From positions 322,433 through 386,432 of the forward strand of contig BCGN01000007.1 in NCBI GenBank assembly GCA_001599295.1: a DNA stretch of 64,000 bases, written 5' to 3'. This DNA comes from Sporopachydermia quercuum (Eukaryota). The position numbers were made by a program, and so were the translations under genes. Below, in pieces: positions 3,349 to 45,604 of the stretch (position 1 is its first letter; the number at the start of each line of letters is the position of its first letter). The notes beneath the pieces were generated by a model, which was not told the origin of the DNA, ran no database searches, and saw nothing but the letters and a program-made list of their open reading frames with translations.

Positions 3349-5523
3349 ATGATGCCTCAGAATGGTCAAGGGCTACCTGGTCAGCCAAATAGACCTAATC
3401 AACCAGGGCCTGGTGGTCAACAACCAGCAGGTCAACAACGTCCAACCCAGAGAAGAATGACCACTGCTGAAGATATGAAACAATTAGTTGCCAGATATCA
3501 AAATGATTTGAAAAGAGCAAAAGAAGTGGGTGAAAGGACTCCTCAGGGACAGGATTATTTGCGAAATGCTGCTAGGATCAAACAGATTATTGTGAATTTT
3601 AGAAAACAGGTTGAACAACAGCAACAGGCGCGTAATGCTGCTGCTGCTGCTGCTGCTGCCGCTGCATCTACTGGTAATTCTGGTGTCAATCAGAACGTTG
3701 GACAACAATTCCCGAATCAACCAGGAAACAATCTTCGACAGACCTCAATGGCTCCTGGTACTCAACGAATGATGCCACAAGGGCAAGTTCAACCGCAAGG
3801 ACAACCACAGCAGCAGCAGCAACAAGCACAACAACAGCCTGGTCAGCAAGTGCCTCAAAGACCAATGAGTGCCCAAGAACAAGTTGTTCAGTTGATGAAT
3901 CGTCAACGACAAGTCAAACAAATGTTGGAAGAGTGTTCCAAACGGATTGTTGATATTCGTAATAATCTTCGTAATCCTTCCTTGAATGAAGCCGCGGCAA
4001 ATACACTTAGAGAACAAGAAATTGCCTATAAACGTAAATATGAACAGCTAAAGGCAACTGACTTGGCTTTCACAAAAAGAATTCAAGCTTTATCTAGTCA
4101 AGGCAATATTCAAACCCAACAGATGCAGCAGGTGCAATCAACACCACAGTTGCAACCAAATCAAAAACAAATGCAACAAGGACAAGGTGCTACTAATATG
4201 AATATGTCACCTAATATGAATCAAATGACTAATCAACAATTTGCTCGTGCTCGTACAATGGCAACAGTAAGTATTATCGAATGACTTCCACAGAATGCAT
4301 TTTTTGACTAATTATTGAAGCTCATTCTGAATATTTTCCTTATTTTTGGTCAATGATTTTTCTCGTTTTGTTTTGTTTTGTTTTGTTTTCTCCTGNCTTT
4401 TTATGAACAGAACTAACATTCTTCAATATAGACCCCCAACCCTTTGAATGCTCAACCACAACAAAGAATACCAACACCGGCAGAACAGAATTTATTAGCT
4501 CAAAAGAAAGCTGCAACTGCTGCTCAAATGGCAGCGGCGAGAAGGCATTCTGCCAATATCAATCAGCAGCCTATTGGCCAACAACCACCTGTTCCGTTAG
4601 CCGCTGGTGCATCAAATATGAATAGAACAGACAGTAATTCCTCTCTTCCAGGAATGAATCGAACTGGCTCTCAAGTAAATATTGCTGGTGGTGTTCATAA
4701 TCCTGGCGATAAAATGGGTGATCAGTTACAAACAAAATCGTCTCAACAACAAACACAAATACAACCACAACCACAACCACAAAATCAATTGCCCCAACAA
4801 CCACAACCACAACTACAATCACAACAACAATCACAACAACAATCACAACAACAATCACAACAACCGCAACCACCAAACCCTCAATCACAACATCAACAGT
4901 CACAAAGTCCTCAAAATGTTTCCCAGTCAAACTCTGCCAATCAATCACAGCCAAGAAGCAGAACAGGATCAAACTCACCTTCAGTGCCCCTGGGAATGAA
5001 TACNAATAAACAGGTTGTAAGCTCTATCACAATAAGCAAAGATATATCTGTAACACCACCAAAACCAGTCGTGCTCAAGCTGCAGAATCCTACGCTTTCT
5101 GGAGGATCAGCTTTGTCTGCGGTCTCATTGACTACCCCGGCGGCAATCAAAATGCCACATGTTGAACTTCCTGGAGAACGGATTCTATCTAAACGGAAAC
5201 TCAGTGAATTGTTTAAAACCGTTGCTGGAGAAGATGATGTTGACGCCTCTGTTGATGGTGATGTAGAAGAGCTATTGCTCGATATGGCTGATGACTTTGT
5301 TACTAGTGTTACTGCGTTTGCTTGTAGATTAGCAAAACATCGGAAATCTGATACTTTGGAAGCAAAGGATATTCAGCTTCATTTAGAGAAGAATTGGAAT
5401 ATTAAAGTACCCGGTTTTAGTTCTGATGAGATTAGGTCTGTTAAGAAGTTGCTACCAACTCCTAGTTATAACAGTAAGTTGAATGGTGTGAATATATCCA
5501 AGTCTGTTGGAAAAACTAGTTAA
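3349..5523 (+). CDS. TAF12: TFIID/SAGA subunit Taf12; exons 3349-4266 and 4432-5523 (669 aa)
   Basis: Q-rich N-terminus. Phase-0 intron 4267-4431 (GTAAGT...AACTAAC...TAG) joins the two ORFs in frame. C-terminal histone fold (RILSKRKLSEL...DVEELLLDMADDFV...ACRLAKHRKSDTLEAKDIQLHLEKNWNI). Confidence 0.93.
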
Positions 5524-15227: not shown

Positions 15228-18200
15228 TCATTGTTGGCCATTCAGTTCGCGCTTACTATTGTCTTTTCTCCCATTTTCTTCTCTTCCACTCGCTTTGAAT
15301 CCNGTATCCTTAACCTCAATAAAATCGTCTTTATATTTATCACTTATTTGACATGAATTGTATATATTATCTCTCATGGTCTTAATTGGTGTCTTTTGCC
15401 ATCTTCTGAATATTCGAGAAGGTGATTCAAACTCATAACAATGCTGTATCAGGGATTCAATCTCTCTCTCCACTGTTGAGAACTGCATTGGAATTCCAAT
15501 GCTTCTTAAATATCCAATCATTTCTAATCCTTCCCAAGGTCCAATATCTGATTTATAGAAGGATATTCTAGTTAATCTATGCAAAACATACGGAATGAAT
15601 ATTTTCCTTCCTTTTAATCTAACAATTTCTTCCCATGTATAATTCTTAGCTTTTGCTTCTTGTTTTAACATCCTAATAACATATGCAACAAAGTTCTTAA
15701 TAATTGTAATGCTCTGTAAAAATACAACCCGAATTAACATAGTTCTCCAAACGTATTCATTGAGAAATATGCCTTTCTGACAGCATTTATGCAGAAAGAG
15801 CATTGTTTCACGATCATTCTGATTCTGTCGATAGAGCTCTCGAGGACTAAAGTTCTTCATAGGCCGAAAGCTTTCCTCAACTATGTCATAAGCCTTTGAG
15901 CTGGAATCGAGTTCGTTCATCAGGGTTCTATAAATGGCTCTCATCTCGTCTAACAATGATTCCAGTGTCTCTTCTTTTATTTGAGATACGTTATAAAAAT
16001 CAATATAAGTAGGGGAAGCAATAGAGCTCAAATTGGAATCAGAATCAGAAGTAGGATCCGAATTATCTTTCATCTCTTTATTCTTCTTACTATGGATGGA
16101 CTGGTTATCAATAAACTGATGTATTAATGGCGTAGGAATGGAGCTTATATTTCTAACAAGCCATTGCTTAGCTCTTGTCTTTTCTGCTTCTTCATCTATA
16201 GTAGTAAGCTTCTTATTTGAATCATCAAGATGTTTTTCGCCTTTTGACCGGTTTGAGCTTACTACACTTTCAACTTTATTATTTGAATTAATATCTGGGT
16301 TTGCACTCCCGGTCAGCATTTTGTTGTCTTCTTTCGCTTCGCTATGGCTGCTCAATGTAATAGGTTCACCATTATTACTGAACAGCAATTTAAGCTGTTC
16401 CCAGTAATCAACAAGCATCACGCTGTCAAATAAAGTATTCAGAGATGCTGTGGATTCGCCAAAATCAATAAAAACTGGTATTTGATTCTCTCGATTGTTC
16501 TTCCTGGTCCTAGCTTTTACAATACGATACAATGTAATAGGTCCTCGTTGTAGTAGCATTAATGCAATTGAACTGGCCGCTTTGCCTAGCTCTTCATTCA
16601 ACACCTCAAATTGTGTATCACCATTCGCTATTGGTTTTTCAATTTTATATTTAAATTTGTTCAAGTCGTTCAATGCTTCATAGATTTCTCCTTTTTTGAC
16701 TAAATTGTTAATCCGCAGAATTGCTGTTCTTAATGGTAGTTCACGATTTTCGAATACCTTATGAAACTCGTCTTCGAATGCACTGGTGTATCCATTTTCT
16801 AAAAGAATAGATAGATATTTAAAGGTAACATCACAACCAAGATCATGAACGCCTTTGATAGTAAGTGAGAATTCATCGCATAACTGACATATTTCGCTTG
16901 CTCTATCAAATTGTCCTGTACCAGCGAATAATTTGAGCAATGATAGTAAAGTATATATATCTATGGGATTCTTAGATAGTTCTAATTCTAATTCTCCTTG
17001 GCTCAATTCCGATAATTTTATAGCAGATAAATAATATGTTTCCTCAATATTCACTGTAATTAATCTTTTAATATGATGAAACTTTCCCCAATCGATAGTT
17101 GAGTTCTTCATGTAAGAATGACAGATTTTACCCACTGATACTTGCATAATTCCATCAGCGGCTTGAGGGAGCTTCGAAAACTTTCTAATACCCTGAAAAA
17201 TCGCATCACTCAAAGAGAAAGAGTATGAATTAATAGGTCCATCTGACAGACATTCTAGTAATCTTTTGAAAGATTTAGCATAGTCCATACTTATCAAATA
17301 GTGTATTAGGTCTTCAATCAATGAGTCACGGAAGCTGTAAACTTTCTCATCCATCAAATAAAAACACCAGTTAATAGCCATATTCTTATCCCGTTTGCTG
17401 TAATATTCAATAAGCTTATCAAACAAAAGAGACGATCGTCTATAATTACGAACACTCCTAATAAAATTCTCAAACTCCTTTCTACCTTCTGGAGACTCTG
17501 ATAACATAGCACATAAACTATAGTCAAGAATGTTCTGCCTTGAGACATTATAATTTTTGAATATATACTGGAAATTCGGTATNCTCTCAGGGAATTTATA
17601 AAGCAGGAAAGAAAACAAGCTTGAGATGAAAAGATTAGATACATTAGCCCTTCGTGCTATGAATTCAACTTGTTTCATTCCTTCGCTAAACTGTTGAGGA
17701 TTTAAACTGAAAGCAAACATTACAATTGAATTCAACCAAAAACTCTTCGTTTCAAGAATAGAATCGTTTAAAATTGCTTGAATAACAGGACTCAAATTTC
17801 CAAGTGAATTTAAGGGCTTATCTTCCAATTCATTTGAAGCTGATTGCCATAGGAAAGCTAAGTGTTCAAGCTCTTCTTTCTCAAACAAGGTGACGTTCAA
17901 AGCTTTGAAAAAAGGATGCAGCGAATCCTTAGCCAACGTTGATTTAATTGAGTTCCTATATCGTTTCGGTTCATGCCTTAAAACTAAGGATCGGAATTTC
18001 TCAGGTGAGCCAATGTTGTTCAGTTGTGTTTTCTGTCTTCTTTTAACCTTTTCCTGGTTTTCCTTTGGTTTAGCCAAGGAATCAGGGGCCGAAGATGGTT
18101 TCATAGAAGATTTGAGTTTACGATTTGATATACTACTTGCTGTAAAATATTTTTGTAACCGCTCAAAGCTGAAAGTCGGTTTCCAACCATTGAAAGACGA

Positions 18201-18302
18201 TGGTGTATTGATGATAGATATCTCATTGTGAAGAAAGGTGGAGACATGGTTATGGAGTTGAAATCTCGTACCGTTTTTGAGCTTATGCAACGGAAACCTC
18301 AT
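15228..18302 (-). CDS. Probable mitochondrial pentatricopeptide-repeat (PPR)-like protein, 1024 aa
   Basis: Basic N-terminus with few acidic residues. Helical repeats resemble PPR (IYTLLSLLKLFAGTGQFDRASEICQL; FDKLIEYYSKRDKNMAINWCFYLMDEKV). Orthologue not identified. Confidence 0.55.
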   Translation of the reverse strand: MRFPLHKLKNGTRFQLHNHVSTFLHNEISIINTPSSFNGWKPTFSFERLQKYFTASSISNRKLKSSMKPSSAPDSLAKPKENQEKVKRRQKTQLNNIGSPEKFRSLVLRHEPKRYRNSIKSTLAKDSLHPFFKALNVTLFEKEELEHLAFLWQSASNELEDKPLNSLGNLSPVIQAILNDSILETKSFWLNSIVMFAFSLNPQQFSEGMKQVEFIARRANVSNLFISSLFSFLLYKFPEXIPNFQYIFKNYNVSRQNILDYSLCAMLSESPEGRKEFENFIRSVRNYRRSSLLFDKLIEYYSKRDKNMAINWCFYLMDEKVYSFRDSLIEDLIHYLISMDYAKSFKRLLECLSDGPINSYSFSLSDAIFQGIRKFSKLPQAADGIMQVSVGKICHSYMKNSTIDWGKFHHIKRLITVNIEETYYLSAIKLSELSQGELELELSKNPIDIYTLLSLLKLFAGTGQFDRASEICQLCDEFSLTIKGVHDLGCDVTFKYLSILLENGYTSAFEDEFHKVFENRELPLRTAILRINNLVKKGEIYEALNDLNKFKYKIEKPIANGDTQFEVLNEELGKAASSIALMLLQRGPITLYRIVKARTRKNNRENQIPVFIDFGESTASLNTLFDSVMLVDYWEQLKLLFSNNGEPITLSSHSEAKEDNKMLTGSANPDINSNNKVESVVSSNRSKGEKHLDDSNKKLTTIDEEAEKTRAKQWLVRNISSIPTPLIHQFIDNQSIHSKKNKEMKDNSDPTSDSDSNLSSIASPTYIDFYNVSQIKEETLESLLDEMRAIYRTLMNELDSSSKAYDIVEESFRPMKNFSPRELYRQNQNDRETMLFLHKCCQKGIFLNEYVWRTMLIRVVFLQSITIIKNFVAYVIRMLKQEAKAKNYTWEEIVRLKGRKIFIPYVLHRLTRISFYKSDIGPWEGLEMIGYLRSIGIPMQFSTVEREIESLIQHCYEFESPSRIFRRWQKTPIKTMRDNIYNSCQISDKYKDDFIEVKDXGFKASGREENGRKDNSKRELNGQQ

Positions 18303-20032: not shown

Positions 20033-22108
20033 ATGAAGAAAAATAAGAGTATAAAAGATTCTGATGAGTCTGGTGAACAAGGATTAAATCTTCATTTGTT
20101 TTCCATTGAATCAACTGATTCTTTGAATGACTCAAACGAATCAGCTACCGCACATCTTCTATCGTCAGAAGAGAGAAGTGAAGAACCTGAAAGCGAGCAA
20201 CTTCAGCAAAATCAACAAAGTCACCAGAGTCAACAACCAGTTGGTGTATTAAAAACTAAAGATTCCAAGAAATCGAAGCCAAAGTCTCTTGTCAGATTTG
20301 CTTCTCATGATGATGAAGTGTATATCAATGAGTTCCATAGTAACGACAGAAATCGTGGCAACGAGCTGAGCACTAAAAATAAGAATAATACTAATAAGAA
20401 AAATAGATTCCATAGATACAAACGCAATCCTGCGTATCGTGATATTTCAGCTCACTATGAAAGAAGATCGAACTCGTTTTCTGATAACTCAGAGTCAGAT
20501 TTATCATATGATGAAGACAATGATGAGATAGAAATCGANTATCAATACAGTCATGGTAGAAGTGCTAAACAACATCAACATGATATTTTTGTTAAAAAAG
20601 TATTATATGGTGGTCTACTGGGTCTAATAATCTCATTACTGATATATATTTCACTATTGCTAACTGATGATAATGATCTCCCCCATGACGGTATTNACTT
20701 CAAACCAATACTATCCAATGGGTCTCACGATTTCTATCCAACAACATTATTTATTTCTCTGGATGGATTCCATCCTCATTATATTTCTAAACAATTAACA
20801 CCAAAACTGAACTCNCTAATGATTGAGGAATACGGTGCTCCTTATATTATTCCTTCCTTTCCTTCGTCTACTTTTCCTAACCATTGGACGATGGTCACTG
20901 GGCTATATCCATCAAGCCATGGTATAGTGNGTAATCACTTTTTTGATCCTTCGTCGAATAAACAGTTCATTAGTACTCGAAATGAGTTAGCTCTTGATAG
21001 ATCTTGGTGGGGAGGCGAACCAATATGGGAAACTGCTGCTAAGAATGGTGTTTCTTGTGTTGTTCATATGTGGCCAGGTTCTGAAGTTCCATGGGGCTTT
21101 GGTGCACCTATAGAAGTTGATAAATATAATGGAACTGAAAAACTGTCCCGGAAACTTGATAGGATCTTCAGCTGGTTAGATAATGATATTGAGACTCGTC
21201 CAGAGCTTTTGCTTGCATACGTACCTACCATTGACTCATTAGGTCATAAATTTGGTATATCAGGTCCGGAGTTGGAAGAAGGATTGCAGTACGTTGATTC
21301 TTTTATACAAAGCTTGTATGATGATCTTGAGCTGAGAAATCTTACTGATATTGTTAATGTTATAATTGTATCAGATCATGGAATGGCACCAATTTCTAAT
21401 GACCGGTTGATATTCCTTGACGATTTGATTGATATTTCAACTATTGAACATCGAGACGGCTGGCCATTGTTCGGCTTACGCCCTTTCGATTATTACGATA
21501 ATAATGAAGTATATGCCAATCTTTCCAATAGAATCAACAATCTACCNCCGGAAAAAGCACATTTACGTGTTTTCAATTCGACAACTATGCCGAAGGAATT
21601 CATGTTTACTAATACTGGTGATGACAGATACCAAGAACGAATTGCTCCAATATGGTTGATTCCTGACGAGGGTTATGCTATAACTACTCATAAAGAATTC
21701 GAAGACAAGAATTTTGATTATACACCGAAGGGAATTCATGGTTATAATAACACTGAAACTTTGATGAGGGCGTTATTTTTGGGTACAGGACCATTTCTCC
21801 ATCAGTTATTCGACACTGTTGACGAAAGGAAAGGAAATGAAGTAAAGAAACTCGCTCCTTTTTCTAATATTGAGATTTATAATTTAGTATGCCATTCATT
21901 GAATATGGTTCCTGGGGAGAATAATGGGACATGGATAGGCAATGGTAGTGATAAACATAGTAAAAATAGTGGTAGCGGTAATAAAGAAGGGAATTTGAAG
22001 CTNTTGCAGCAAGGATGGAGAGATAATGTTCAATATCCTGATGTTGGGTTCAATGTTAGTATTATTGATGTTGATTCGACTTATGATGAATTGTATGGTA
22101 AAGAATGA
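20033..22108 (+). CDS. NPP1: Ectonucleotide pyrophosphatase/phosphodiesterase (Npp1/Npp2 family), type II membrane protein
   Basis: One TM helix, then [26 protein letters not shown] (catalytic Thr), [19 protein letters not shown]. Confidence 0.93.
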
Positions 22109-22648: not shown

Positions 22649-24501
22649 TCATAGCTTAGAAGAGCTCGGCTTCTTCTTTGATTGCCAGCCAAATTGTAGT
22701 TTACTCTTCAATCCTTGATCAATTATAACATTAAGAACTGATGTTTTGCCTCCAATTCCAGCACTATCACTAACAGCTTTAGCAAACGCTTGTTTCAATT
22801 CATCATATGTTCTGACTAGATAACCATTAGCACCTAAAGATTCTCCCAATAAATCATACCTAACTTCTAGACTTAATGCCGTTGATGGTAATTTACTCTT
22901 GGTATCATTACCATTGCTATTATACTGTTCATTAGGAGTGCCATGGTAAATGCCACTGTTGTTCATGATAATTATCACCAAGGGTAAATTACTTCTAACT
23001 GCAGTTTCAATCTCCATACCGGAAAATCCAAAAGCTGAATCTCCTTCAATGGCAATAACTAATGAATTTGGTTCAGCTGCTTTAGCTGCTATAGCATAAC
23101 CTAATCCCAATCCCATAGTAGCATTCGTACCAGCATCTAATCTTCTTCGAGGGTAATTCAATGGGAAAGCAACTCTAGACACATCCATGGTATTCGCTCC
23201 TTCTGACGCAAAAATGATCTCTTCTGGCTTATAAACTGTTTGATTGGCTAGTACTTGCTTGATTATATTATAGGAAGCTTGATAAGTCATAGGTATATCA
23301 TATTTGTTCTCTTTTTCGATGCTTTTCTTCTCGTTTGCTTGGATTTTATTGATAATCTCAATAGGAATTTCAGGAGCNNTCCAATTAATACTANTCAACT
23401 GTTCCGTCAGCTGAGGAACAGTAAGCTTCAAGTCGCCTAATAGACCTAAGTATGCATCACCAGTATTGTTACCAATTTCTTCAGCATTAATATCGAATTG
23501 AATTATCTTAACGTCTTTTCTAAATCTTGGCGATGCACCGAAGTGAAGTAACCAGTTGAGCTTTGCTCCCAAAAGTAAAATAACATCANCGGATTTCAAT
23601 GCTTGAGTTCTAGCTGCTGAAAGGTTCCCATCCCAATTATCAGGAACAACACCTTTACCCATAGGTGTAGGTAGGAAAGGAAGATTAGTTGATTTTATGA
23701 GTTTTTGGACTTCTAGCTCGCTTTTGGCATAAGCAGCCCCTTTCCCAATGATAACTAAAGGGTTGGTAGATGATTGTAAAGAAGATACAATAGAAGCAAT
23801 AGTATTAGGATCGCCAATTGATTTTGGTGGTGAAGGAAATTCACCTTCACGTTGGAAATATTGTGATAACTTGTCAAAACACTCAACTGCTTCTTCTGAT
23901 TCGTTTTCTATATCAGTTTGAATTATATCTGCCGGTAAATCAATATAGGTGGAACCAGGGCGGCCAAANGTAGAAACACGATAAGCTTTTTCAAGCAAGA
24001 AAGGAAAGTTTGATAATTTATGAGGTTTGCCAGAAAACTTGGTAAAAGGAGTTGTAACAGTTATTTGATCTTCTTCTTGGAAAGCCCCTTTATAAACTTC
24101 ATCGCTGTCGCTTGAGCCAGCCAGAAGAATCAATGGCCATGAATTGGAATTAGCATTGACTACTCCAGCCAGACCATGAATAATCCCAGGTCCTCCAACT
24201 ACTAACAAAACTCCTGGTTTCCCTGTGAGATATCCATAGATAGAAGCTGCATAAGAAGCTGCCTGTTCGTTTCTGAAGGAAATAAATTGAATTCCTTCTT
24301 CAATACAAGCATTAGCAACCTGGTGAGAATTACGCTCTGTTAGTAGATGAAGCAATTGATACATAGGTACTTGTGCGATCGTATATGGGATGGCACCTGA
24401 GGGATACTTACTTCGACCACTGGGATTCCTACAATTCCAAAAATTGTTTTGATTCCAGCTCTTTTAATGGTTTGAGCAATAAATTTAGATCCTGTTACCA
24501 T
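22649..24501 (-). CDS. PXP1: Peroxisomal TPP-dependent 2-hydroxyacyl-CoA lyase / oxalyl-CoA decarboxylase-like; exons 24501-24412 and 24319-22649 (586 aa)
   Basis: Exon 1 MVTGSKFIAQ...IFGIVGIPVVE. Intron 24411-24320 is GTAAGT...TACTAAC...CAG. Motifs FRNEQAASYAA, LDAGTNATMG, TPP motif GDSAFGFS...MNN; C-terminal PTS1 SKL. Confidence 0.92.
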
Positions 24502-25898
24502 ACTTGCTTTTATTGTAGTAATAATCTGTTGGATCGTATTGTATTGGGTCTACTAAGCTNCTCTGCACAAGTAGTTGAGTCACCTACTATCTCCTCTGCA
24601 AAATAGTAACACTAAACGTTGCTTCTGAGTTCTAAAAGGACAAGCAATTCAACGTCGTAATAGCAAGGAATTTGTGGATAGAATACTATTGATTTGAAGA
24701 ATGTAAANCAGATGTACAGTAGTAGATTATGAATTAGTAAGAATGAATTGAATGAGAAGCGGGGAGACAAACAAGGAGAGCAAAGGCCGAGGAAATAAGA
24801 TTAAAGATGATGCAAGTTGATGCAAGTTGATGTATTAGGGAAGAGCTGCATGAAGGGTAAGCATAAAGTGAAATGAAAGGGAAGTAAAGTAGAGAGTTAG
24901 AAGTGCAGGGAGAAACATTTGAATAAAGANAAACACATATTTTGCTATATTTTGGGATAAGATGGCAGTAATATAATGGATACATTGCTACTGGTTGTGA
25001 ATAGAAGATTGCAGGTTTAATCCACAATTAAGGTTCAAAACTCTATTGTACATTTATTTTAGGATCACAAGATCAGAAAAGGTACAAATGTAGATGAATT
25101 TATGTAATAGATAACTATTTTTCTTTTAATTCCAGCTTAAATTCACTCCAGAAAACTTGATTATATTTTTGAAATACGTATTACCAAAATCCATACCACT
25201 TGTTTTAAAGTTTGTAAATTTTTCCCTAACATTACTATGAAATATGAATCTGTTCCACTTGAATGATCAATTCTCCACGGAGCACAATACAATATCACGT
25301 GATCGATGAAATTTGGGAGGTCTAAAGGTGGTTTCAATTTACTATTCACCGAGTTGAATAACTTTAGGATAAGTGGAAAAACACTACCAATAATCTATTT
25401 TAATTCAGATATCTAATAAATATATACAAGCTCTGTTCAATATAACTGTTTGATCAATATTCCAATGAAGGCTAACGAAATCAATCATCTAATCCTGTCA
25501 ATGACATGTTATAGTAAGCTGGTAGAATGATGATTGTGATGTATGAGTATAATAACGCAAATCTATGATCAGCTGATTTCATTTCGCCTTGCCCATCAGT
25601 AAAATTCGTTAACATTGCCTGAAAACTTACAGGTTTTACTGTTTCTTTTTGATAGAGCATAATGCTCATCTAGAAANTTCTAAGTCTAGTGACAAACAGN
25701 TTTCATTCATCGTACATCATATCTCAGAAGTGTGTCACCCAAAGGCATTATTCTGCTACTATCTCCGTTATATTTTCAAAACTTAGCTTTAACAGCTCAT
25801 TCGCACTCCATTCATACAGATCATCACCAAATTATTCAATTCACTCTATCGTTGCATCATGCAATACATCCTTACTCTCAAGCAACTGCTTCTGAAAT

Positions 25899-27458
25899 TC
25901 AACATTTACAGTTATTCACAGTGCGTGGGAAAGGTATAACATCTTTAATGTTATCTTCTGCCGTTAAGTAACTAATCAGTCGTTCGAATCCCATACCAAA
26001 ACCACCATGAACAGTAGTGCCGTTCCTCCTTAAGTTCAAATACCAGTTCAAAGGGTTAACTGCCATTTTCCTATCAACAATCTCTTGTTCCAGCTTCAAC
26101 GGGTCTTCCTCTCTCAAACTGCCTCCTATTAATTCCCCAATCTCTGGTAATAACAAATCAAAGCATGCAACAGTTCTACCTTCGTCAAAGCTATTCTTCT
26201 TCATATAGAAAGGCTTTAAAGCAGTAGGATAATCAGTAACGAAAACTGGACCTTCAACGTGCACTGCAGCTAACCATTTTTCATGCTCTGACCTTAAATT
26301 GTCTCCATACTTGGGAATAACGTCAAATAGATTCCCATCTTTATTGGCAGCCTCCAGCAAAACATCAATAGCCTCAGCATATGTCATTCTTCTCCATTTC
26401 TCGTCTAATTTTATGGCTTCCCATCTGCTCTTTAAAACTGAGGGTATATCTGTTTGAGTTCTATAATCTACGTCTACCTCTGTCACGACTTTACTTACTT
26501 TATGAGGACGAATAAATGGATTAGCAGTTAATAAATCGCTTTTCACTCCATTTTCATCATTCAACAATCCTTGAACAACGGACTTGATCATAGCTTCAGA
26601 AATTGCGATCAAGTCCTCTAAGTCTTTTACAAAGGAAATCTCAGCTTCAACCATCCAGAACTCGCTCAAGTGACGATTTGTATCACTTTCTTCAGCTCTG
26701 AACGCAGGAGTAAATGTCCATACTTTATTGACGGCAGCTGCCAAAACTTCTAAATGCAACTGAGTAGAAACAGTTAAATATGTTCTCTGACCAAAAAATT
26801 GTGAACCAATAGGAGCTGAATTACTGTTCACCGTAAATAGCTCACCAGCTCCTTCACAGTCCGTAGATGTTATTATTGGTGGATTCACTTGTGTATATTC
26901 TTGGTCATAGAAAAAATCACTAATTTTCTTGATAGCAAAAGATCTAAATCGTAGAACGCTCCCCAAACTCAATGCTCTCCATCTGTATTCTGGAATATTC
27001 CTTAAGAAGTGTCTTGAATGAAACTTCTTCTGCAAAGGATATTCTTCTGTAATAGGACCTAGAACTCGTATGCCAACACCGTCTCTAATGTCCTCGGTGG
27101 ATAATTCAAACGATTGTTCACCAAAAGGAGTTAGCTTGAGGGCTCCTGTAACAGAAACTGTGGCACCTGTCTTGAGATTTGGATTTCTTGCCTTATCAAC
27201 TGGTGCTACAACTAGTAGCTTTTGACTACAAGTTCCATCAGTTACATCGATGAACGCAATTTTCTTAAGCCTGCGAATAGATCTTACCCAGCCGTTAACA
27301 GACACAACAGTATCCTGATTTGGAGGACTATCTATAAGGGATTTTATAGACCTCACGCGTGTCTGAAGAGCATTTTCTTCAATCTTTGGTACCATATGTA
27401 TCAGTCTATTACCACCAAGGATGGCTCTAATAAGCCTTGGAGTTTTATATGGCAGCAT
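25899..27458 (-). CDS. SLM5: Mitochondrial asparaginyl-tRNA synthetase
   Basis: Basic presequence, OB fold (VNGWVRSIR), YLTVSTQLHLE, FRAEESDTNRHLSEFWMVEAE, HGGFGMGFERL. Confidence 0.95.
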   Translation of the reverse strand: MLPYKTPRLIRAILGGNRLIHMVPKIEENALQTRVRSIKSLIDSPPNQDTVVSVNGWVRSIRRLKKIAFIDVTDGTCSQKLLVVAPVDKARNPNLKTGATVSVTGALKLTPFGEQSFELSTEDIRDGVGIRVLGPITEEYPLQKKFHSRHFLRNIPEYRWRALSLGSVLRFRSFAIKKISDFFYDQEYTQVNPPIITSTDCEGAGELFTVNSNSAPIGSQFFGQRTYLTVSTQLHLEVLAAAVNKVWTFTPAFRAEESDTNRHLSEFWMVEAEISFVKDLEDLIAISEAMIKSVVQGLLNDENGVKSDLLTANPFIRPHKVSKVVTEVDVDYRTQTDIPSVLKSRWEAIKLDEKWRRMTYAEAIDVLLEAANKDGNLFDVIPKYGDNLRSEHEKWLAAVHVEGPVFVTDYPTALKPFYMKKNSFDEGRTVACFDLLLPEIGELIGGSLREEDPLKLEQEIVDRKMAVNPLNWYLNLRRNGTTVHGGFGMGFERLISYLTAEDNIKDVIPFPRTVNNCKC

Positions 27459-27963: not shown

Positions 27964-29040
27964 CTAATCCAAACGTGTAATGTCAACTGTTTCATCATTC
28001 CTACTTTTTTTCCTATGCTGCTGAGCAATAAACACCTCCACCCGTTTCTTAAGTCCGCTATTTGGCGTGAGATCGGATACTGAAATCAGTTTATCACACG
28101 CAGGAATAGGACATTTTGTCCTATTGTTGTTAGATCGTATGACTTGCACAATAGCTTCTCTCTCAAAGGAATGTCGACAAGATTTACTAACAACAGGATC
28201 AACAAACAACGACATTGTTAAGGGACACTTCAACGAGATGGTTTGGTCACCAACTACTAGCTCATCATCTCCATTAGCATTCTCAGTCAAGCTGTTTAAA
28301 TATGTAATAACTTCATCCTTCAACTTCGTATCAATTTGATCATCTTTGACATTAATATTCTGTAAGACCCATTGTGCCCATGGTTCGTCTCCACCCAGTG
28401 CCTTTTCAGGATATATTCTCGCCCATGCAGACTCTCTAAATTCTTGTAAAATATCGGCTTCTTCTCTAGCAAAAGCTGTGGCATCTTTCACATTCCTCAT
28501 GTATTCTTGATGTATTGTATGTCCCATATCAGAATATAGGCCTTTAACTGATGCTCCAGAACTTATATAATTCCCATTAGAATCACTATTCGATATGTAG
28601 CCATTCAGTTTCTCTACCGATAGGCCATTGCTGAGATTCCCTCTCAGTATGTCTTCCAGCGAAGCTTCTTTATCCTGTTCATCATCACAGTACGAATTAT
28701 CATGATTTGCGCATGCTATCAGTGAAGACTTTGATAAAGAGATGAAATCTTGAAACAGATTTCTATTTGCTGATCCCGACAAAAGCTTTTTCAGCTGTTG
28801 TTCAGATTTGCCTAGCCATAACATCAATTCCCCATTTTTGGCATCAACATCTCCTTGAAACTCGTTCTCACCATATTGCTCTGTTAGTTGCTCTGCGTTT
28901 GATATCAGCTCTTTCTTTGAATTCTCAATCAGACTGATGAGTTTTGCCATCGGGGTTTGGATTTGATTTAGTTCTTTCACAGCTAGCCAAGTAAAAGGCA
29001 ACCGGTTTTCCGAAAGCTGTTCTGTTATTTCACCTGACAT
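27964..29040 (-). CDS. MMS21: SUMO E3 ligase Mms21/Nse2 (Smc5/6 complex)
   Basis: DDELVVG...ISLKCPLT...PVVSKSCRHSFEREAI...CPIPAC is an SP-RING; helical N-terminus. Confidence 0.9.
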   Translation of the reverse strand: MSGEITEQLSENRLPFTWLAVKELNQIQTPMAKLISLIENSKKELISNAEQLTEQYGENEFQGDVDAKNGELMLWLGKSEQQLKKLLSGSANRNLFQDFISLSKSSLIACANHDNSYCDDEQDKEASLEDILRGNLSNGLSVEKLNGYISNSDSNGNYISSGASVKGLYSDMGHTIHQEYMRNVKDATAFAREEADILQEFRESAWARIYPEKALGGDEPWAQWVLQNINVKDDQIDTKLKDEVITYLNSLTENANGDDELVVGDQTISLKCPLTMSLFVDPVVSKSCRHSFEREAIVQVIRSNNNRTKCPIPACDKLISVSDLTPNSGLKKRVEVFIAQQHRKKSRNDETVDITRLD

Positions 29041-29851: not shown

Positions 29852-30412
29852 TTACTTTGAAGGAACAGGCCTCGCTGTAAANATTATTTTATACCTAATG
29901 ATTTCCATTACTGTGACCGATGCAACGTGGTTGGCGGGACAATCAGCATTAGTGAATGTTTGAGAACTACTCCTCGTTGGATCAGAAATCCCATTAGGAC
30001 TACCCATATTCAACACTGCTAAAGGAGTAGATAACTTCTGAACTTTTCCTATTAATTTTTGATTTTCCCCGATATACAATTCTGCATTCGTATTGTTGAT
30101 ATTCTCGACATCTGTATCAATCACCAGTTGTCCTATCTTCAAAAGTTTTTCTTCATCGCTTGTAGTATGTGTATCTAGTCTTGGCTTTTTGCTCAGCTGT
30201 TCTTGTTCCTCAGGGTTAATTGCAGTTTTACCCTCTATGTGTTTTCTCTCAAAAGCTTTCGTTATATTCGAAAGAGTAGATGTTTGTATTTCTCCTTGAA
30301 TTTCAATCATGGCGATATCATTCCCCAGCTTTACAAGCAATGGGTTTCCTTCTACTGCGCTGTCGCGCGTCGATAGACTACCTATCTTACTAGTCACAAT
30401 AGCTGAAGGCAT
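29852..30412 (-). CDS. CTF8: Ctf18-RFC subunit Ctf8 (186 aa)
   Basis: Starts MPSAIV at ATG 30412; MIEIQGEI, LYIGENQKLIGKVQKLSTPLAVL, IIRYKIxFTARPVP. Confidence 0.9.
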   Translation of the reverse strand: MPSAIVTSKIGSLSTRDSAVEGNPLLVKLGNDIAMIEIQGEIQTSTLSNITKAFERKHIEGKTAINPEEQEQLSKKPRLDTHTTSDEEKLLKIGQLVIDTDVENINNTNAELYIGENQKLIGKVQKLSTPLAVLNMGSPNGISDPTRSSSQTFTNADCPANHVASVTVMEIIRYKIXFTARPVPSK

Positions 30413-30926: not shown

Positions 30927-33638
30927 ATGCTTGGGGCATTGGAGAAACTTGTTCTGGCACAAATCGTGTACCAAACAATCGAAAATGCTAAACCAGCAAC
31001 AGGTGCTAATAAAACGTCTTTCTTCATAGTTAATGTTGCATTGATTACATCGCAATTCAATAGTAACCCCATGATCTTGGAAAAACTAAAAAGCTTTAAA
31101 GAACGCGGCATTGGTATAGGGAATGGAAGCAGCAACACCAATAGTAACAGTCCTACAACTACCACTGGAGGTATAGAAGAAGGATTTCTTAATGAAGAGA
31201 AATGCACAAGAGAAATAAAGGAACTTTTACATCATGAAAAGTCGTTTATTTATTCCAGTAGCCATACACCTTCTATGTTGCAGATCTCAACTGATGCTCT
31301 GCAGTATTTGAGCTCAGCTATACATAAATTATATGACCAGTACAAACTGGTGTTAATACAGTTAATCAAGAACGATGAAGAGAAATACCAATCCAAGATA
31401 AAAGAGATTGAAATGATCGAGAAAGGTGAATTAGACAAAGAACTCGTGAGAGAAAATGCAGTGTTGGCCCAAATCAAAACTGCCCAGCAAGCCCATAGGT
31501 TACATCCGCAAGGTCAGAGAGGCAGACAACAGTACAGGTCACAAACTCCTATTTCACATCAAATCCAAAGACAAATTTACTCTTCCATGTCTAACATGAC
31601 CCAAAGGAAGTCTTCATCGCCACAGGTTCCTGATAGATCGAGATCCATTACGCCTGGTAAAGAGATGAGTAATTCTATCTCTTCTGGTAGCACTGGACCC
31701 TCTACTAACTCTTCTCCAAAATCAGCTCCTGCTGCTAATACTGTTTCGACGTCTGTAACTGCTCCTGTGCCAAATAACGTTGTAGTATCTAAAGAAAAAA
31801 CTGTTACTGGTGATGTTTCTGTTAGAGAAACAGTACCTGCGGCTACTAACGGTACTAATTCTGGAACCCCTGCGAGTACAACGAGTAACATTCCTATTTC
31901 CAATACTCTAAACAAAAATGGCACTTCTAGCATGAGCGATAGTACCGTTTCTAGTACTGATAGTAGACTGACAGAAGAACTCCATATAGGAATAGGGACC
32001 AAGCGGAAACTTGATGATACTACAAATACCCAAAGCATCAGTATCAAGAAAGAGAAGCTTGAACAAAACACGAGAACTATTGAAGATATTGATATGAGAG
32101 ATTCTGATGTTCGTGAGAAAAATGGTAATTCNAATACCAATGCTATTGCTAATGCTAGTGACGAGGCTATTGGAGCAAATACTAATAGCGACAATATCAA
32201 GGTAGAGCAAGCAAAACTAGAAATAGAAAAGGGGGGAAACGTGAACTTGAACCTGAATCAACAGAAGCAAGGAAAAGGACTAGTACAATATCAAACCGCA
32301 AAACCGGGATTGAAACAAGAGCTCAAGAAAAAACTAAATGAAGCCTCAAAAGAAGAACCAGAAGTTGGGAAAAAGGTGCCAGCTAGCAATGCTGAGAGTA
32401 CTGCAGGTCGTGAGAACACTTCTAGTAGTAACGTTAATGATACCACCGTCACTGATGCTGTCAGTGGAAAGATTTCTGATGCTTCTTTTACAGGTAGTAA
32501 TAACGTTTCTCCTGTTCCTACTACTGATGTCTCTAAGAATCCTGCTGACATGTCTAAGGCTGTTACTGCTGGTGGCGATGACACGCCGCTCAAAGAAAAG
32601 ACATCTCAAGGCTCTGTTCACGCTGGAAGATCCCCAAGGTCTGCCAGTCCTGCCACTCCAGGTAGTGTTGATGGTGAAAAGGAAAATATCTATCAAGATG
32701 CTTTTGAAGAGTTGCCTCGGGAGCCAGTCAGCATTATGCCCAATGAGACTGAGGCAAAGGCGGGAGCCGATGGAGCAGAAAAGCTGACGGAGACAGAAGA
32801 GCAAAGAGTAATTAGTAAGTCAACACACACTGCTGTTGCAAGTAAGAGTAATGATAGTTTGAACGTGAACGTGAATAAGGAGAAGGAGAAGGAGAAGGAT
32901 AAGAGTGAAGCTAATGCAGATGCTGCGGCTAGTAACTCTGAAGTAAAGGTAGATTCGAGTGGTATTATCGGTACTATAGCAGCTTCTCCTAGTTTATCAA
33001 AAGGAATCAGTACCGCTAAGACTAAATCTACTTCTGATACTACTCTCTCAACTTCTACATCAAAATCTACAGAAGTTTTATCTCTAATTTATGATAAGAA
33101 TGATAATGATACTGATTATAAGAGCGCTGAAACGTTGGATTCGGCCAAGAAAAACCCTAAAGCCACGACTAAGTCGCCTGAGACCTCCAACCAAAAAGAG
33201 GAATCCACTGCAACAAGTATAAACAATATGTCGCGATCAATTGTCGCGGCAACAGAGGAAAGTAATGATACAATGCATGAACCACCAAAGCATAAACCAA
33301 ATCGTCGTTTCCAATCATTAATAGCTCCAGTGTTGTCAGATCTCATGTCTAATAGAAATGCGTCGTTTTTCATGCACCCTGTCCATGAAAGTGATGCCCC
33401 GGGTTACTACGATATGATATTTACACCAATTGATCTGAAATCAATCAAGGATCAAATAAAAGATGGCAGGCTACAGAATACAACTGAATTAGCCAGAGAA
33501 TTATGGCGCATGTTTGCTAATGCTGTTATGTATAATAAATCTGGTTCAGATGTGTATGAATGGACGTTAGAAATGGTTCGTGATTTCGAATTACTATGGC
33601 AAGTGATCGAAGAAGCTGAAGGAGAGTCCGAAGAGTAA
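30927..33638 (+). CDS. NuA4/TINTIN-type bromodomain protein (Eaf5-like N-terminus, low-complexity middle, C-terminal bromodomain; BRD8/Bdc1-like), 903 aa
   Basis: First ATG at 30927 (MLGALEKLVLAQIVY). Bromodomain FMHPVHESDAPGYYDMIFTPIDLKSIK...MFANAVMYN keeps the acetyl-lysine-binding Asn. Confidence 0.8.
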   Translation: MLGALEKLVLAQIVYQTIENAKPATGANKTSFFIVNVALITSQFNSNPMILEKLKSFKERGIGIGNGSSNTNSNSPTTTTGGIEEGFLNEEKCTREIKELLHHEKSFIYSSSHTPSMLQISTDALQYLSSAIHKLYDQYKLVLIQLIKNDEEKYQSKIKEIEMIEKGELDKELVRENAVLAQIKTAQQAHRLHPQGQRGRQQYRSQTPISHQIQRQIYSSMSNMTQRKSSSPQVPDRSRSITPGKEMSNSISSGSTGPSTNSSPKSAPAANTVSTSVTAPVPNNVVVSKEKTVTGDVSVRETVPAATNGTNSGTPASTTSNIPISNTLNKNGTSSMSDSTVSSTDSRLTEELHIGIGTKRKLDDTTNTQSISIKKEKLEQNTRTIEDIDMRDSDVREKNGNXNTNAIANASDEAIGANTNSDNIKVEQAKLEIEKGGNVNLNLNQQKQGKGLVQYQTAKPGLKQELKKKLNEASKEEPEVGKKVPASNAESTAGRENTSSSNVNDTTVTDAVSGKISDASFTGSNNVSPVPTTDVSKNPADMSKAVTAGGDDTPLKEKTSQGSVHAGRSPRSASPATPGSVDGEKENIYQDAFEELPREPVSIMPNETEAKAGADGAEKLTETEEQRVISKSTHTAVASKSNDSLNVNVNKEKEKEKDKSEANADAAASNSEVKVDSSGIIGTIAASPSLSKGISTAKTKSTSDTTLSTSTSKSTEVLSLIYDKNDNDTDYKSAETLDSAKKNPKATTKSPETSNQKEESTATSINNMSRSIVAATEESNDTMHEPPKHKPNRRFQSLIAPVLSDLMSNRNASFFMHPVHESDAPGYYDMIFTPIDLKSIKDQIKDGRLQNTTELARELWRMFANAVMYNKSGSDVYEWTLEMVRDFELLWQVIEEAEGESEE

Positions 33639-34136: not shown

Positions 34137-34566
34137 TCAACGTTGCATAGACTTGGTCAATAAATCGCTGGATTGTATGTTAGTATCAGAGGCAAGAGTA
34201 GAGACAGCAGATACACATATATATTTATGATACAGTAAACTTTCTTGCAGAATGCACAAACAAAGTTTATAATATCATTGTTCATACTCTCATCGTGATC
34301 CTTTCGCTGTTGATCCATCTCCTGAATACTTACTTTTGTTCTTGGAATCTTTGTCCCACTCGTTCACTGTGTTTCAAAAACTTTTCTGCACATTTCAATG
34401 TGCAAGCCTCTTCACGTCCGGTCAATTTGTTTGAAGTGAAATCGTTGACGCAATCATTGAAACATCTTTCCACTAATGAAGAATACAATCTCATGAAATC
34501 TTTCATTTGCTTCTTTTCCAAGATAGCTTGAAACTCTTGTTGTTCACGTAGGTTTAATTGTTCCAT
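34137..34566 (-). CDS. TIM9: Mitochondrial IMS chaperone Tim9; exons 34566-34334 and 34167-34137 (87 aa)
   Basis: Twin CX3C (CFNDC...CTLKC), [24 protein letters not shown]. Intron 34333-34168 (GTAAGT...TACTAAC...CAG) restores [10 protein letters not shown]. Confidence 0.95.
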
Positions 34567-44445: not shown

Positions 44446-45604
44446 TCAATCGTATTTGAACACGTTCAAGTGGGATAATCTTTTTGCAAAACTTAGAACT
44501 TTCCTTGGAGCCTTCACAACGTCGATCAAAGAATCATAATCGCCTCTTGCCAGGAGAGATTTCAGATTATTCAATTGAAGTCTTATCATACTGGGAACTT
44601 CATATTTTTCGTTCCAATTTAGCTTTCTCATTACTTCAGATTGTAGATCAGACTGACTAGTCACAGACGCAGTGCTACCATAAAGATAAAAATGTCGATC
44701 CATTTTCATAGGTGTATAAAGAAGAGGAATNTGAATAGTGACAAGTGAGTCCTCGGATGATGTGGTTATTGAATCCAAGTTCAATTCAATCCATTGACTC
44801 AGAAAGTTGTCCACTACAAGAGGTGCAATTAGTTTTGGAGGCTTTTCTATTTCCTGTTCAATATCAGCATATCCAATATCATTTTCTTCAGGGCTCTTGT
44901 AATGTAGATTTAGAGTCTGCACATACTCATAAGACTCAAATTCGAAAACACCCCCAACTAAAGTATTAGGAAATACAGGAAATCTATCACTCTCTGCAAA
45001 NCGTGATCTTCTTGCAAGAGAAAAACACCTTTTCTTTGATGCCATGTCAGTGCATATAGGAGCAACCCAGGATATCATCGAACTAATTGGTGACGAAAAA
45101 GAGTATTTACACGAACCATATGTTTGTTTACTGATTACCTCTCCGGCCTCACAAACGACCAAGTTGGTTTCTATGACAGGGGAGAGAATGTTTTCTAGTT
45201 CCAAAGTCCTATTTGTTATCCATTTTTTTTGCATGTTTTTCAGTACAGCTTCTATTCGAATCCCCGAATACAAGAACTGCGAGGTGCCAGATGGCTCACA
45301 TATCCTATTTTGCGAAACCGGAGCTCGCAATGCTTCAATTCTTTTACCATCTGCCAGTTGAGAATACAGAATCCATGATATCAAAAAACTTGTAGGACCA
45401 AAGGTAAACAGTACCATTGCGACAGCATACAGCGCTACGATGTAGATAGACCCACAAGGGAGAGTCAATGATCAGATCATAAGGCTGAGTAAAAGCAATC
45501 AATATAGTATAGGACATACAACTGAGAAAAGTTCAAACGTTTGCTTAGCAAATATCGGATATTTCTATGGTAGCTAATAAAAGCTTCTTTCTAGCCTAAC
45601 ACAT
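44446..45604 (-). CDS. Unidentified protein of about 300-320 aa; start uncertain (unspliced ATG 45417, or ATG 45604 via micro-exons)
   Basis: About 1 kb of open frame convergent with SPP41. The track start at 45468 is TTG, not ATG. No family recognised with confidence. Confidence 0.6.

Follow-up and report, generated by a model that had tools for sequence, protein, structure and literature searches.

The 64,000 nt of Sporopachydermia quercuum contig BCGN01000007.1 analyzed here (the window, taken from a genome of 16.4 Mb in 15 contigs) include a gene for a bromodomain protein of 903 amino acids (aa) that appears to be a fungal counterpart of BRD8 and the orthologue of Saccharomyces cerevisiae EAF5. 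The gene is a single-exon open reading frame (ORF) at 30927-33638 of the plus strand, unbroken save for one masked base at about residue 402. Its reading frame is open from 30690, and the start codon at 30927 looks right because this first ATG aligns with the N-termini of four relatives (P0013, P0014, P0016 and P0017). The CTG codons sit at conserved leucine positions (residues 10, 141 and 837), which implies that the standard code, with CTG as leucine, applies in this genome. The gene and its parts are:

30927..33638, plus strand: probable BRD8-type gene, 903 aa, no intron required (ORF; relatives share the architecture)
30927..31481, plus strand: N-terminal helical domain, residues 1-185, ending in a long helix (residues 122-165), the proposed Eaf1-binding tether (from a hidden Markov model (HMM) and an AlphaFold2 (AF2) model)
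31482..33281, plus strand: low-complexity linker, residues 186-785, presumably disordered (from composition, lack of a Pfam match and variable length)
33330..33560, plus strand: bromodomain core, Pfam residues 802-878, with Tyr827 at 33405-33407 and Asn870 at 33534-33536

The first-pass annotation, made from the letters of the window, had described an N-terminus followed by a long disordered region and an intact bromodomain with an MYN motif, and we recovered each of these elements. The N-terminal stretches it quoted are present, and the AF2 model of residues 1-185 is all helical, with a mean pLDDT of 67 and values above 84 for the helix at 122-184. Hydrophobic content is 17% in residues 186-785 versus 34-35% in both end domains. 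The linker has no match in the Pfam scan, and its length differs widely across relatives, whose whole proteins span 457-1173 aa. The bromodomain is the only Pfam domain of the protein (PF00439, residues 802-878, 61.2 bits against a curated cut-off of 21.7, E = 9.8e-17), with no ET, HAT, BAH or ATPase domain. Its acetyl-lysine pocket residues are intact: Y827, Y828, Y869 and N870 are all present, with MYN at 868-870, and in an alignment of 11 yeast sequences (A5) Y827 and N870 are kept in all and Y828 in 10. Judging from these residues, the domain may bind acetyl-lysine.

Some relatives depart from this pattern. The Pezizomycotina members (P0002-P0012) carry a low-complexity insert of 40-70 aa within the bromodomain, the second tyrosine of the ZA loop is mostly absent from them, and MFN replaces MYN in 7 of the 11. 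The bromodomain of one yeast orthologue (L015:11924-12274) has a 3-residue deletion in the ZA loop and a glutamate at the second tyrosine, possibly an independent onset of pocket decay.

Two routes lead to the family of this protein. A search with the bromodomain alone singled out 11 of 70 candidates, proteins of 776-1173 aa of which the seven named ones are all from Pezizomycotina. An HMM built from the N-termini of 10 of these 11 (P0007 was omitted as truncated, and the query protein was excluded) matches residues 1-185 with 39.1 bits (E = 3e-11), while the next best of the 1024 six-frame window segments scores 5.3. A search with residues 1-185 alone among 1.84 billion representatives gave five matches, all of which end in a bromodomain. 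Since the N-terminus and the bromodomain independently recover the same family, we take the protein to be of the fungal BRD8 type, an assignment that is almost certain; the name follows from the architecture, from a lead in the ESM Atlas and from the published description of a conserved Pezizomycotina BRD-8. Genome searches with proxy queries in place of Eaf5 returned this gene only or nothing credible, and it appears to be the single BRD8-type gene of this genome.

The other bromodomain matches in the genome are all in separate genes, which we take, from domain layout, to be Gcn5, Bdf1, Sth1, Snf2, Spt7, Rsc1/2 and Rsc4. In a tree of 32 bromodomains, the 22 family members and the genome's 10 other domains fall on opposite sides of a split with support of 96/87. 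The grouping with Bdf1, Spt7 or Rsc that the first-pass annotation had raised as a counter-case was not seen: a forced grouping with Bdf1 is rejected by the approximately unbiased (AU) test (p-AU 0.0016), and one with Spt7 gives a borderline p-AU of 0.044. Membership in the BET group (Bdf1) is thus contradicted by the single bromodomain, by the separate Bdf1 gene (found at L002/L004) and by the AU test. Membership among Spt7, Gcn5, Rsc1-2, Rsc4 or Snf2-Sth1 is contradicted by the separate genes elsewhere and the 96/87 split, with Spt7 borderline. The Gcn5 frame at L001 (G000:C6:747437-750685) opens with a stretch of over 200 residues, nearly all of them glutamate or aspartate.

The neighborhood of the gene connects it to EAF5. 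The order in the window is NPP(+), PXP1-type(-), SLM5-type(-), MMS21(-), CTF8(-), the BRD8-type gene(+), TIM9(-) and transaldolase(-), with the following coordinates for the genes used as markers:

20033..22108, plus strand: nucleotide pyrophosphatase (NPP; PF01663, E = 2e-94), left flank of the inverted block
22649..24364, minus strand: thiamine pyrophosphate (TPP)-dependent enzyme, which we take to be of PXP1 type (PF00205, PF02775, PF02776)
25899..27458, minus strand: class II tRNA synthetase, read as mitochondrial asparaginyl-tRNA synthetase (putatively SLM5-type; PF00152, PF01336)
27964..29040, minus strand: MMS21/NSE2 (zf-Nse; PF11789, E = 3e-20), synteny marker
29852..30412, minus strand: CTF8 (PF09696, E = 7e-20), divergent neighbor between the BRD8-type gene and MMS21, head-to-head at 514 bp
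34333..34566, minus strand: main exon of TIM9 (Tim10/DDP; PF02953, E = 2e-23), convergent with the BRD8-type gene, right flank of the inverted block

The first-pass annotation had placed the gene head-to-head with CTF8/MMS21; CTF8 is indeed directly divergent, but MMS21 lies one gene further. Its calls of TIM9, PXP1 and NPP nearby agree with the Pfam domains found (Tim10/DDP, TPP enzyme and phosphodiesterase). It had missed the class II tRNA synthetase between MMS21 and PXP1, which strengthens the synteny and shares 41-46% identity with the gene that adjoins TIM9 in other yeast loci. Two of the flanking genes probably have introns, with a 5' exon of the PXP1-type gene near 24343-24549 and a short 3' exon of TIM9 in 34200-34333. 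Elsewhere in the window, the ORFs at 15228-18302 (1024 aa), 3349-4284 (311 aa) and 44446-45417 (323 aa) have no Pfam match at E 0.01.

A scan of metagenomes for TIM9, along the lines of the gene-order comparison that the first-pass annotation had proposed, yielded 29 loci, nine of them yeast-like (76-80% identity); two of the nine (L013 and L019) are too short, leaving seven that are testable. A bromodomain gene of this family directly adjoins TIM9 in six of these seven (five distinct loci, as L016 and L017 are near-identical), and the 20 non-yeast TIM9 loci contain no match to the gene. Five loci (L012 and L014-L017) have the order SLM5, TIM9, gene, and genetic code table 12 fits the four that were tested. 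At L021 the order is Sec7-GEF, URA3, TIM9, gene(-), MMS21(+), which is the window order reversed and without CTF8, with the gene head-to-head with MMS21. The seventh locus, L018, reads Sec7-GEF, URA3, TIM9(+), SLM5(-), MMS21(-), a 94-aa ORF(+) and PMP1/2(-). CTF8 lies between MMS21 and the BRD8-type gene in the window and is absent from that place in L021 and L018, so it has moved into or out of the block. At L012:735-8447, and also in L014-L017, a stretch of about 5 kb contains two apparently paralogous class II (Asn-type) tRNA synthetase genes that flank an apparent third synthetase gene.

For the corresponding block of S. cerevisiae, we assume that YEL016C, YEL017C-A, YCR024C, YCR024C-A and YCR026C are NPP2, PMP2, SLM5, PMP1 and NPP1, respectively, and that GEA2, URA3, TIM9 and PXP1 follow on the opposite side. 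EAF5 is YEL018W (PMC2614481) and MMS21 is YEL019c (PMC3618361), as the first-pass annotation had it, and by the naming convention the two genes are adjacent and divergent. One inversion between TIM9 and NPP, running from PXP1 through the BRD8-type gene, converts the window order to that of S. cerevisiae and L018. This single step puts the gene at the place of EAF5 in the same orientation, which is the strongest evidence for orthology. A divergent position beside MMS21 in a TIM9-SLM5-MMS21 block holds for both the window, where CTF8 intervenes, and L021. From synteny and the literature, we consider it very likely that the gene is orthologous to S. cerevisiae EAF5.

The ORF that occupies the EAF5 slot at L018 (L018:9569-9853, plus strand, 94 aa, between MMS21 and PMP1/2) is a real gene, given that 12 conserved relatives of 94-99 aa with an invariant core were found among 22 candidates, the seven named ones all from Hanseniaspora. 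Its start and that of MMS21 are only about 230 bp apart, which leaves no room for a second domain. We regard it as a candidate minimal remnant of Eaf5. Several degenerate tandem copies (~40 bp) of the gene's own 3' end follow directly past its stop codon (L018:9830-10050).

A number of points weigh against the orthology with EAF5 and against a common origin of EAF5 and BRD8. Eaf5, Bdc1, Neurospora BRD-8 and human BRD8 are compared here by description and not by alignment, and most gene names in the S. cerevisiae block beyond EAF5 and MMS21 are our assumption. The ESM Atlas lead, a top match of residues 1-190 to the cluster ‘Bromodomain containing 8’, has a score of 0.84, within a range that one shuffled protein in three also attains. 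Searches of the PDB with two N-terminal profiles (E up to 10) retrieved no Eaf5 chain, in a set whose inclusion of Eaf5 is unconfirmed. The Hanseniaspora slot gene matches neither family domain: against the bromodomain profile it gives E 2 (rank 11 of 2577 segments), its hhalign probability is 0.2-0.3%, a level that 11-14 of 30 shuffles reach, and its model consists of three helices with no bromodomain among the top 50 fold matches. In the published record, no recognizable similarity between Eaf5 and BRD8 is reported and Bdf1 is named as the BRD8 homologue (PMC11330486), BRD8 is called a functional equivalent of Eaf5 without recognizable similarity (10.1101/2021.08.11.456009, PMC11330486), Eaf5 is marked as a possible functional homologue only (PMC11462934), Eaf5 and Bdc1 are listed without orthologues in the other yeast (PMC2614481), and Eaf5 is said to have no known domains (PMC7047200).

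The blank profile results are less telling than they seem. The N-termini of four syntenic orthologues from CUG-type yeasts are undetectable with the family profile (probability 0.2%, with 6 of 30 shuffles as high), and that of the L021 orthologue is just detectable at 21 bits. The N-terminal domain diverges beyond detection within budding yeasts, and a blank result is therefore expected for a domain that evolves so fast that even syntenic orthologues are missed. The weight of the slot-gene result is limited for the same reason and by its shallow profile (Neff 1.9), position being what identifies that gene as EAF5. The first-pass claim that Eaf5 is a shrunken BRD8 orthologue is partly supported, as to the BRD8-type family and the EAF5 position, but finds no echo in the Hanseniaspora gene.

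The genome encodes one Eaf7 and one MRG/Eaf3, and its Eaf1 and Swr1 are separate proteins. A predicted complex of residues 1-185 with the 76-aa N-terminus of this genome's Eaf1, folded without alignments, scores 0.52 versus 0.18 for the best of three controls, with a contact agreement between runs of at least 63% and a partner pLDDT of at least 57. Of 78 solved complexes, 51 reach the mark set for this score, as do 2 of 108 mismatches; among eukaryotic pairs, those reaching it number 39 of 65 that are solved but lack a similar structure and 2 of 126 that are unrelated. Passing scores of 0.60 or less comprise only 5 of the 78 solved complexes and all four passing mismatches (of 180). The prediction thus lends weak support to binding between the two N-termini; as the guess was already likely beforehand, the score nudges the odds up without proving binding. 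Published data on Eaf5 and BRD8 point the same way. An AF2 model consistent with crosslinks places Eaf5 1-139 on Eaf1 28-91 and Eaf5 179-279 on Eaf7 (PMC9643008), deletion of Eaf1 1-250 reduces Eaf5, Eaf7 and Eaf3 to 0, 0 and 3 spectra (PMC5861120 supplement), and pull-downs show BRD8 bound to the N-terminus of EP400 (10.1101/2021.08.11.456009).

We propose that the gene product most likely serves the TINTIN module of the histone acetyltransferase NuA4 as its bridging subunit. The helical domain at its N-terminus would grip the N-terminus of the scaffold Eaf1, as the weakly scoring model suggests, and its C-terminal bromodomain would bind Eaf7, and Eaf3 through Eaf7, by analogy with the published Eaf5 and BRD8 models. 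The bromodomain may also read acetylated histones, and the long flexible linker could let this reader module reach nucleosomes distant from the NuA4 core. On the lineage to S. cerevisiae, synteny and the literature suggest that the block became inverted, the linker shortened and the pocket degenerated, giving the 279-aa Eaf5. The explanation as a whole (a single BRD8-type gene, orthologous to EAF5, that serves as the TINTIN bridge of NuA4) is in our judgement likely.

Three other explanations have to be set against it. The gene could be a true BRD8 orthologue whose place in Saccharomycetaceae was taken by EAF5, a gene of unrelated origin that also assumed the bridging function, in which case the two correspond by analogy and not by homology. 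Such a replacement would suit the missing sequence link between the L018 slot gene and the family as well as the reports of functional equivalence without recognizable similarity (10.1101/2021.08.11.456009, PMC11330486), and the neighborhood is not frozen, as CTF8 moved in and the CUG-type loci have the gene in the opposite orientation with respect to TIM9. It requires, however, the loss of one gene and the gain of another with the same function in the same position and orientation beside MMS21, and in published AF2 models Eaf5 shows the same arrangement of two domains, the C-terminal one bromodomain-like; we hold it to be quite unlikely. Also unlikely, if somewhat easier to accept, is that the protein acts mainly outside NuA4/TINTIN, or that its bromodomain is only a protein-binding surface that reads no acetyl-lysine. 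All TINTIN partners are encoded in the genome, Y827 and N870 are invariant and Y828 nearly so in the yeast sequences, and all Neurospora BRD-8 is reported to be bound to NuA4 (10.1101/2023.04.24.538162). The same study found that only part of NuA4 carries BRD-8 and that the bromodomain is dispensable for clock function, so a role in reading acetyl-lysine is not assured; the Eaf1 complex score falls in the weak band, and the Pezizomycotina members lack the second pocket tyrosine and carry the long insert.

That the protein is merely a diverged paralogue of Bdf1, Spt7, Gcn5 or Rsc, unrelated to BRD8 and Eaf5, is very improbable and largely refuted. Sequence searches of the PDB with the bromodomain bring up generic domains first (PBRM1, BRD4, TAF1, BPTF and Gcn5), with no BRD8 chain among the 60 matches listed, as this reading would have it. 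The Bdf1, Spt7, Gcn5 and Rsc genes are nevertheless all present separately, their companion domains are absent from this protein, and the tree split, the AU tests and the family-specific N-terminal domain set it apart from them.

The reading of Eaf5 as a worn-down BRD8, inferred by the first-pass annotation and supported here, is already in print from AlphaFold models (10.1101/2022.11.14.516520) and so is not new. New here are the synteny and the intact yeast intermediates as independent support. In the accessible portions of the literature, which did not cover YGOB, PANTHER or PomBase (where the link may already be implied), we found no use of gene order or of intact budding-yeast members to connect Eaf5 with BRD8, and the portion of PMC10964406 available mentions neither protein. 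The literature is split on the homologues of Eaf5: papers on TIP60 grant it none and pair BRD8 with Bdf1 (PMC11330486, PMC11462934), the Neurospora study keeps EAF5 and BRD-8 apart, and the trypanosome study calls them homologous. This dispute is one that the independent evidence is able to settle. A bolder reading, on which we are evenly divided, is that EAF5 and BRD8 are one gene that decayed stepwise at one locus, from the canonical bromodomain that most lineages retain (the present genome, the CUG-type loci and L021) through a pseudo-bromodomain in Eaf5 to a one-domain remnant of 94-99 aa in Hanseniaspora. If so, NuA4/TINTIN would carry an acetyl-lysine reader in most yeasts and would have lost it in the model yeast, the common pairing of BRD8 with Bdf1 would be wrong, and the Hanseniaspora remnant, unable to hold both the Eaf1- and the Eaf7-binding domain, would have cut TINTIN loose from NuA4. 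The finding reveals no new mechanism, but it points to genetically tractable yeasts in which, unlike in S. cerevisiae, a BRD8-type reader can be studied as part of TINTIN.

The closest known proteins include Neurospora BRD-8 (NCU09482), an auxiliary subunit of NuA4, and its orthologues in Pezizomycotina, which likewise are long, mostly unstructured and equipped with one bromodomain (10.1101/2023.04.24.538162), and we infer that the Pezizomycotina matches found here are these orthologues; they differ in the bromodomain insert, which the budding-yeast protein does not have. That study found no BRD-8 orthologue in Saccharomyces or Schizosaccharomyces pombe, treated EAF5 as a separate gene and obtained no BLAST match between Bdc1 and BRD-8. 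S. pombe Bdc1 (SPBC21D10.10) is a bromodomain subunit of NuA4 in a yeast without Eaf5 (PMC2614481), the complementary pattern expected of orthologues, although it has only 34 kDa and is likened here by description only. In Trypanosoma cruzi, the N-terminal domain of BRD8 is called homologous to those of BDF6 (TcTINTIN) and Eaf5, the three trimers are modelled alike and Eaf5 is given a bromodomain-like pocket (10.1101/2022.11.14.516520); the study rests on AlphaFold models and offers, in its accessible portions, no yeast intermediates or gene order.

Human BRD8 (TIP60/TINTIN) has the same succession of N-terminal domain, long insertion and bromodomain, and bridges MRGBP-MRG15 to the N-terminus of EP400 (10.1101/2021.08.11.456009, PMC11330486, PMC11462934). 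Its scaffold EP400 is an Eaf1/Swr1 hybrid, whereas Eaf1 and Swr1 are separate in this genome, and BRD8 has an isoform with two bromodomains compared with the one found here. S. cerevisiae Eaf5 shares with the S. quercuum protein the divergent position beside MMS21 and two folded ends joined by a linker, the N-terminus for Eaf1 and the C-terminus for Eaf7 (PMC9643008, PMC5861120, PMC2614481). The two differ in length (279 versus 903 aa) and in the bromodomain, which two later preprints describe as a pseudobromodomain or non-functional in Eaf5 and which is canonical here.

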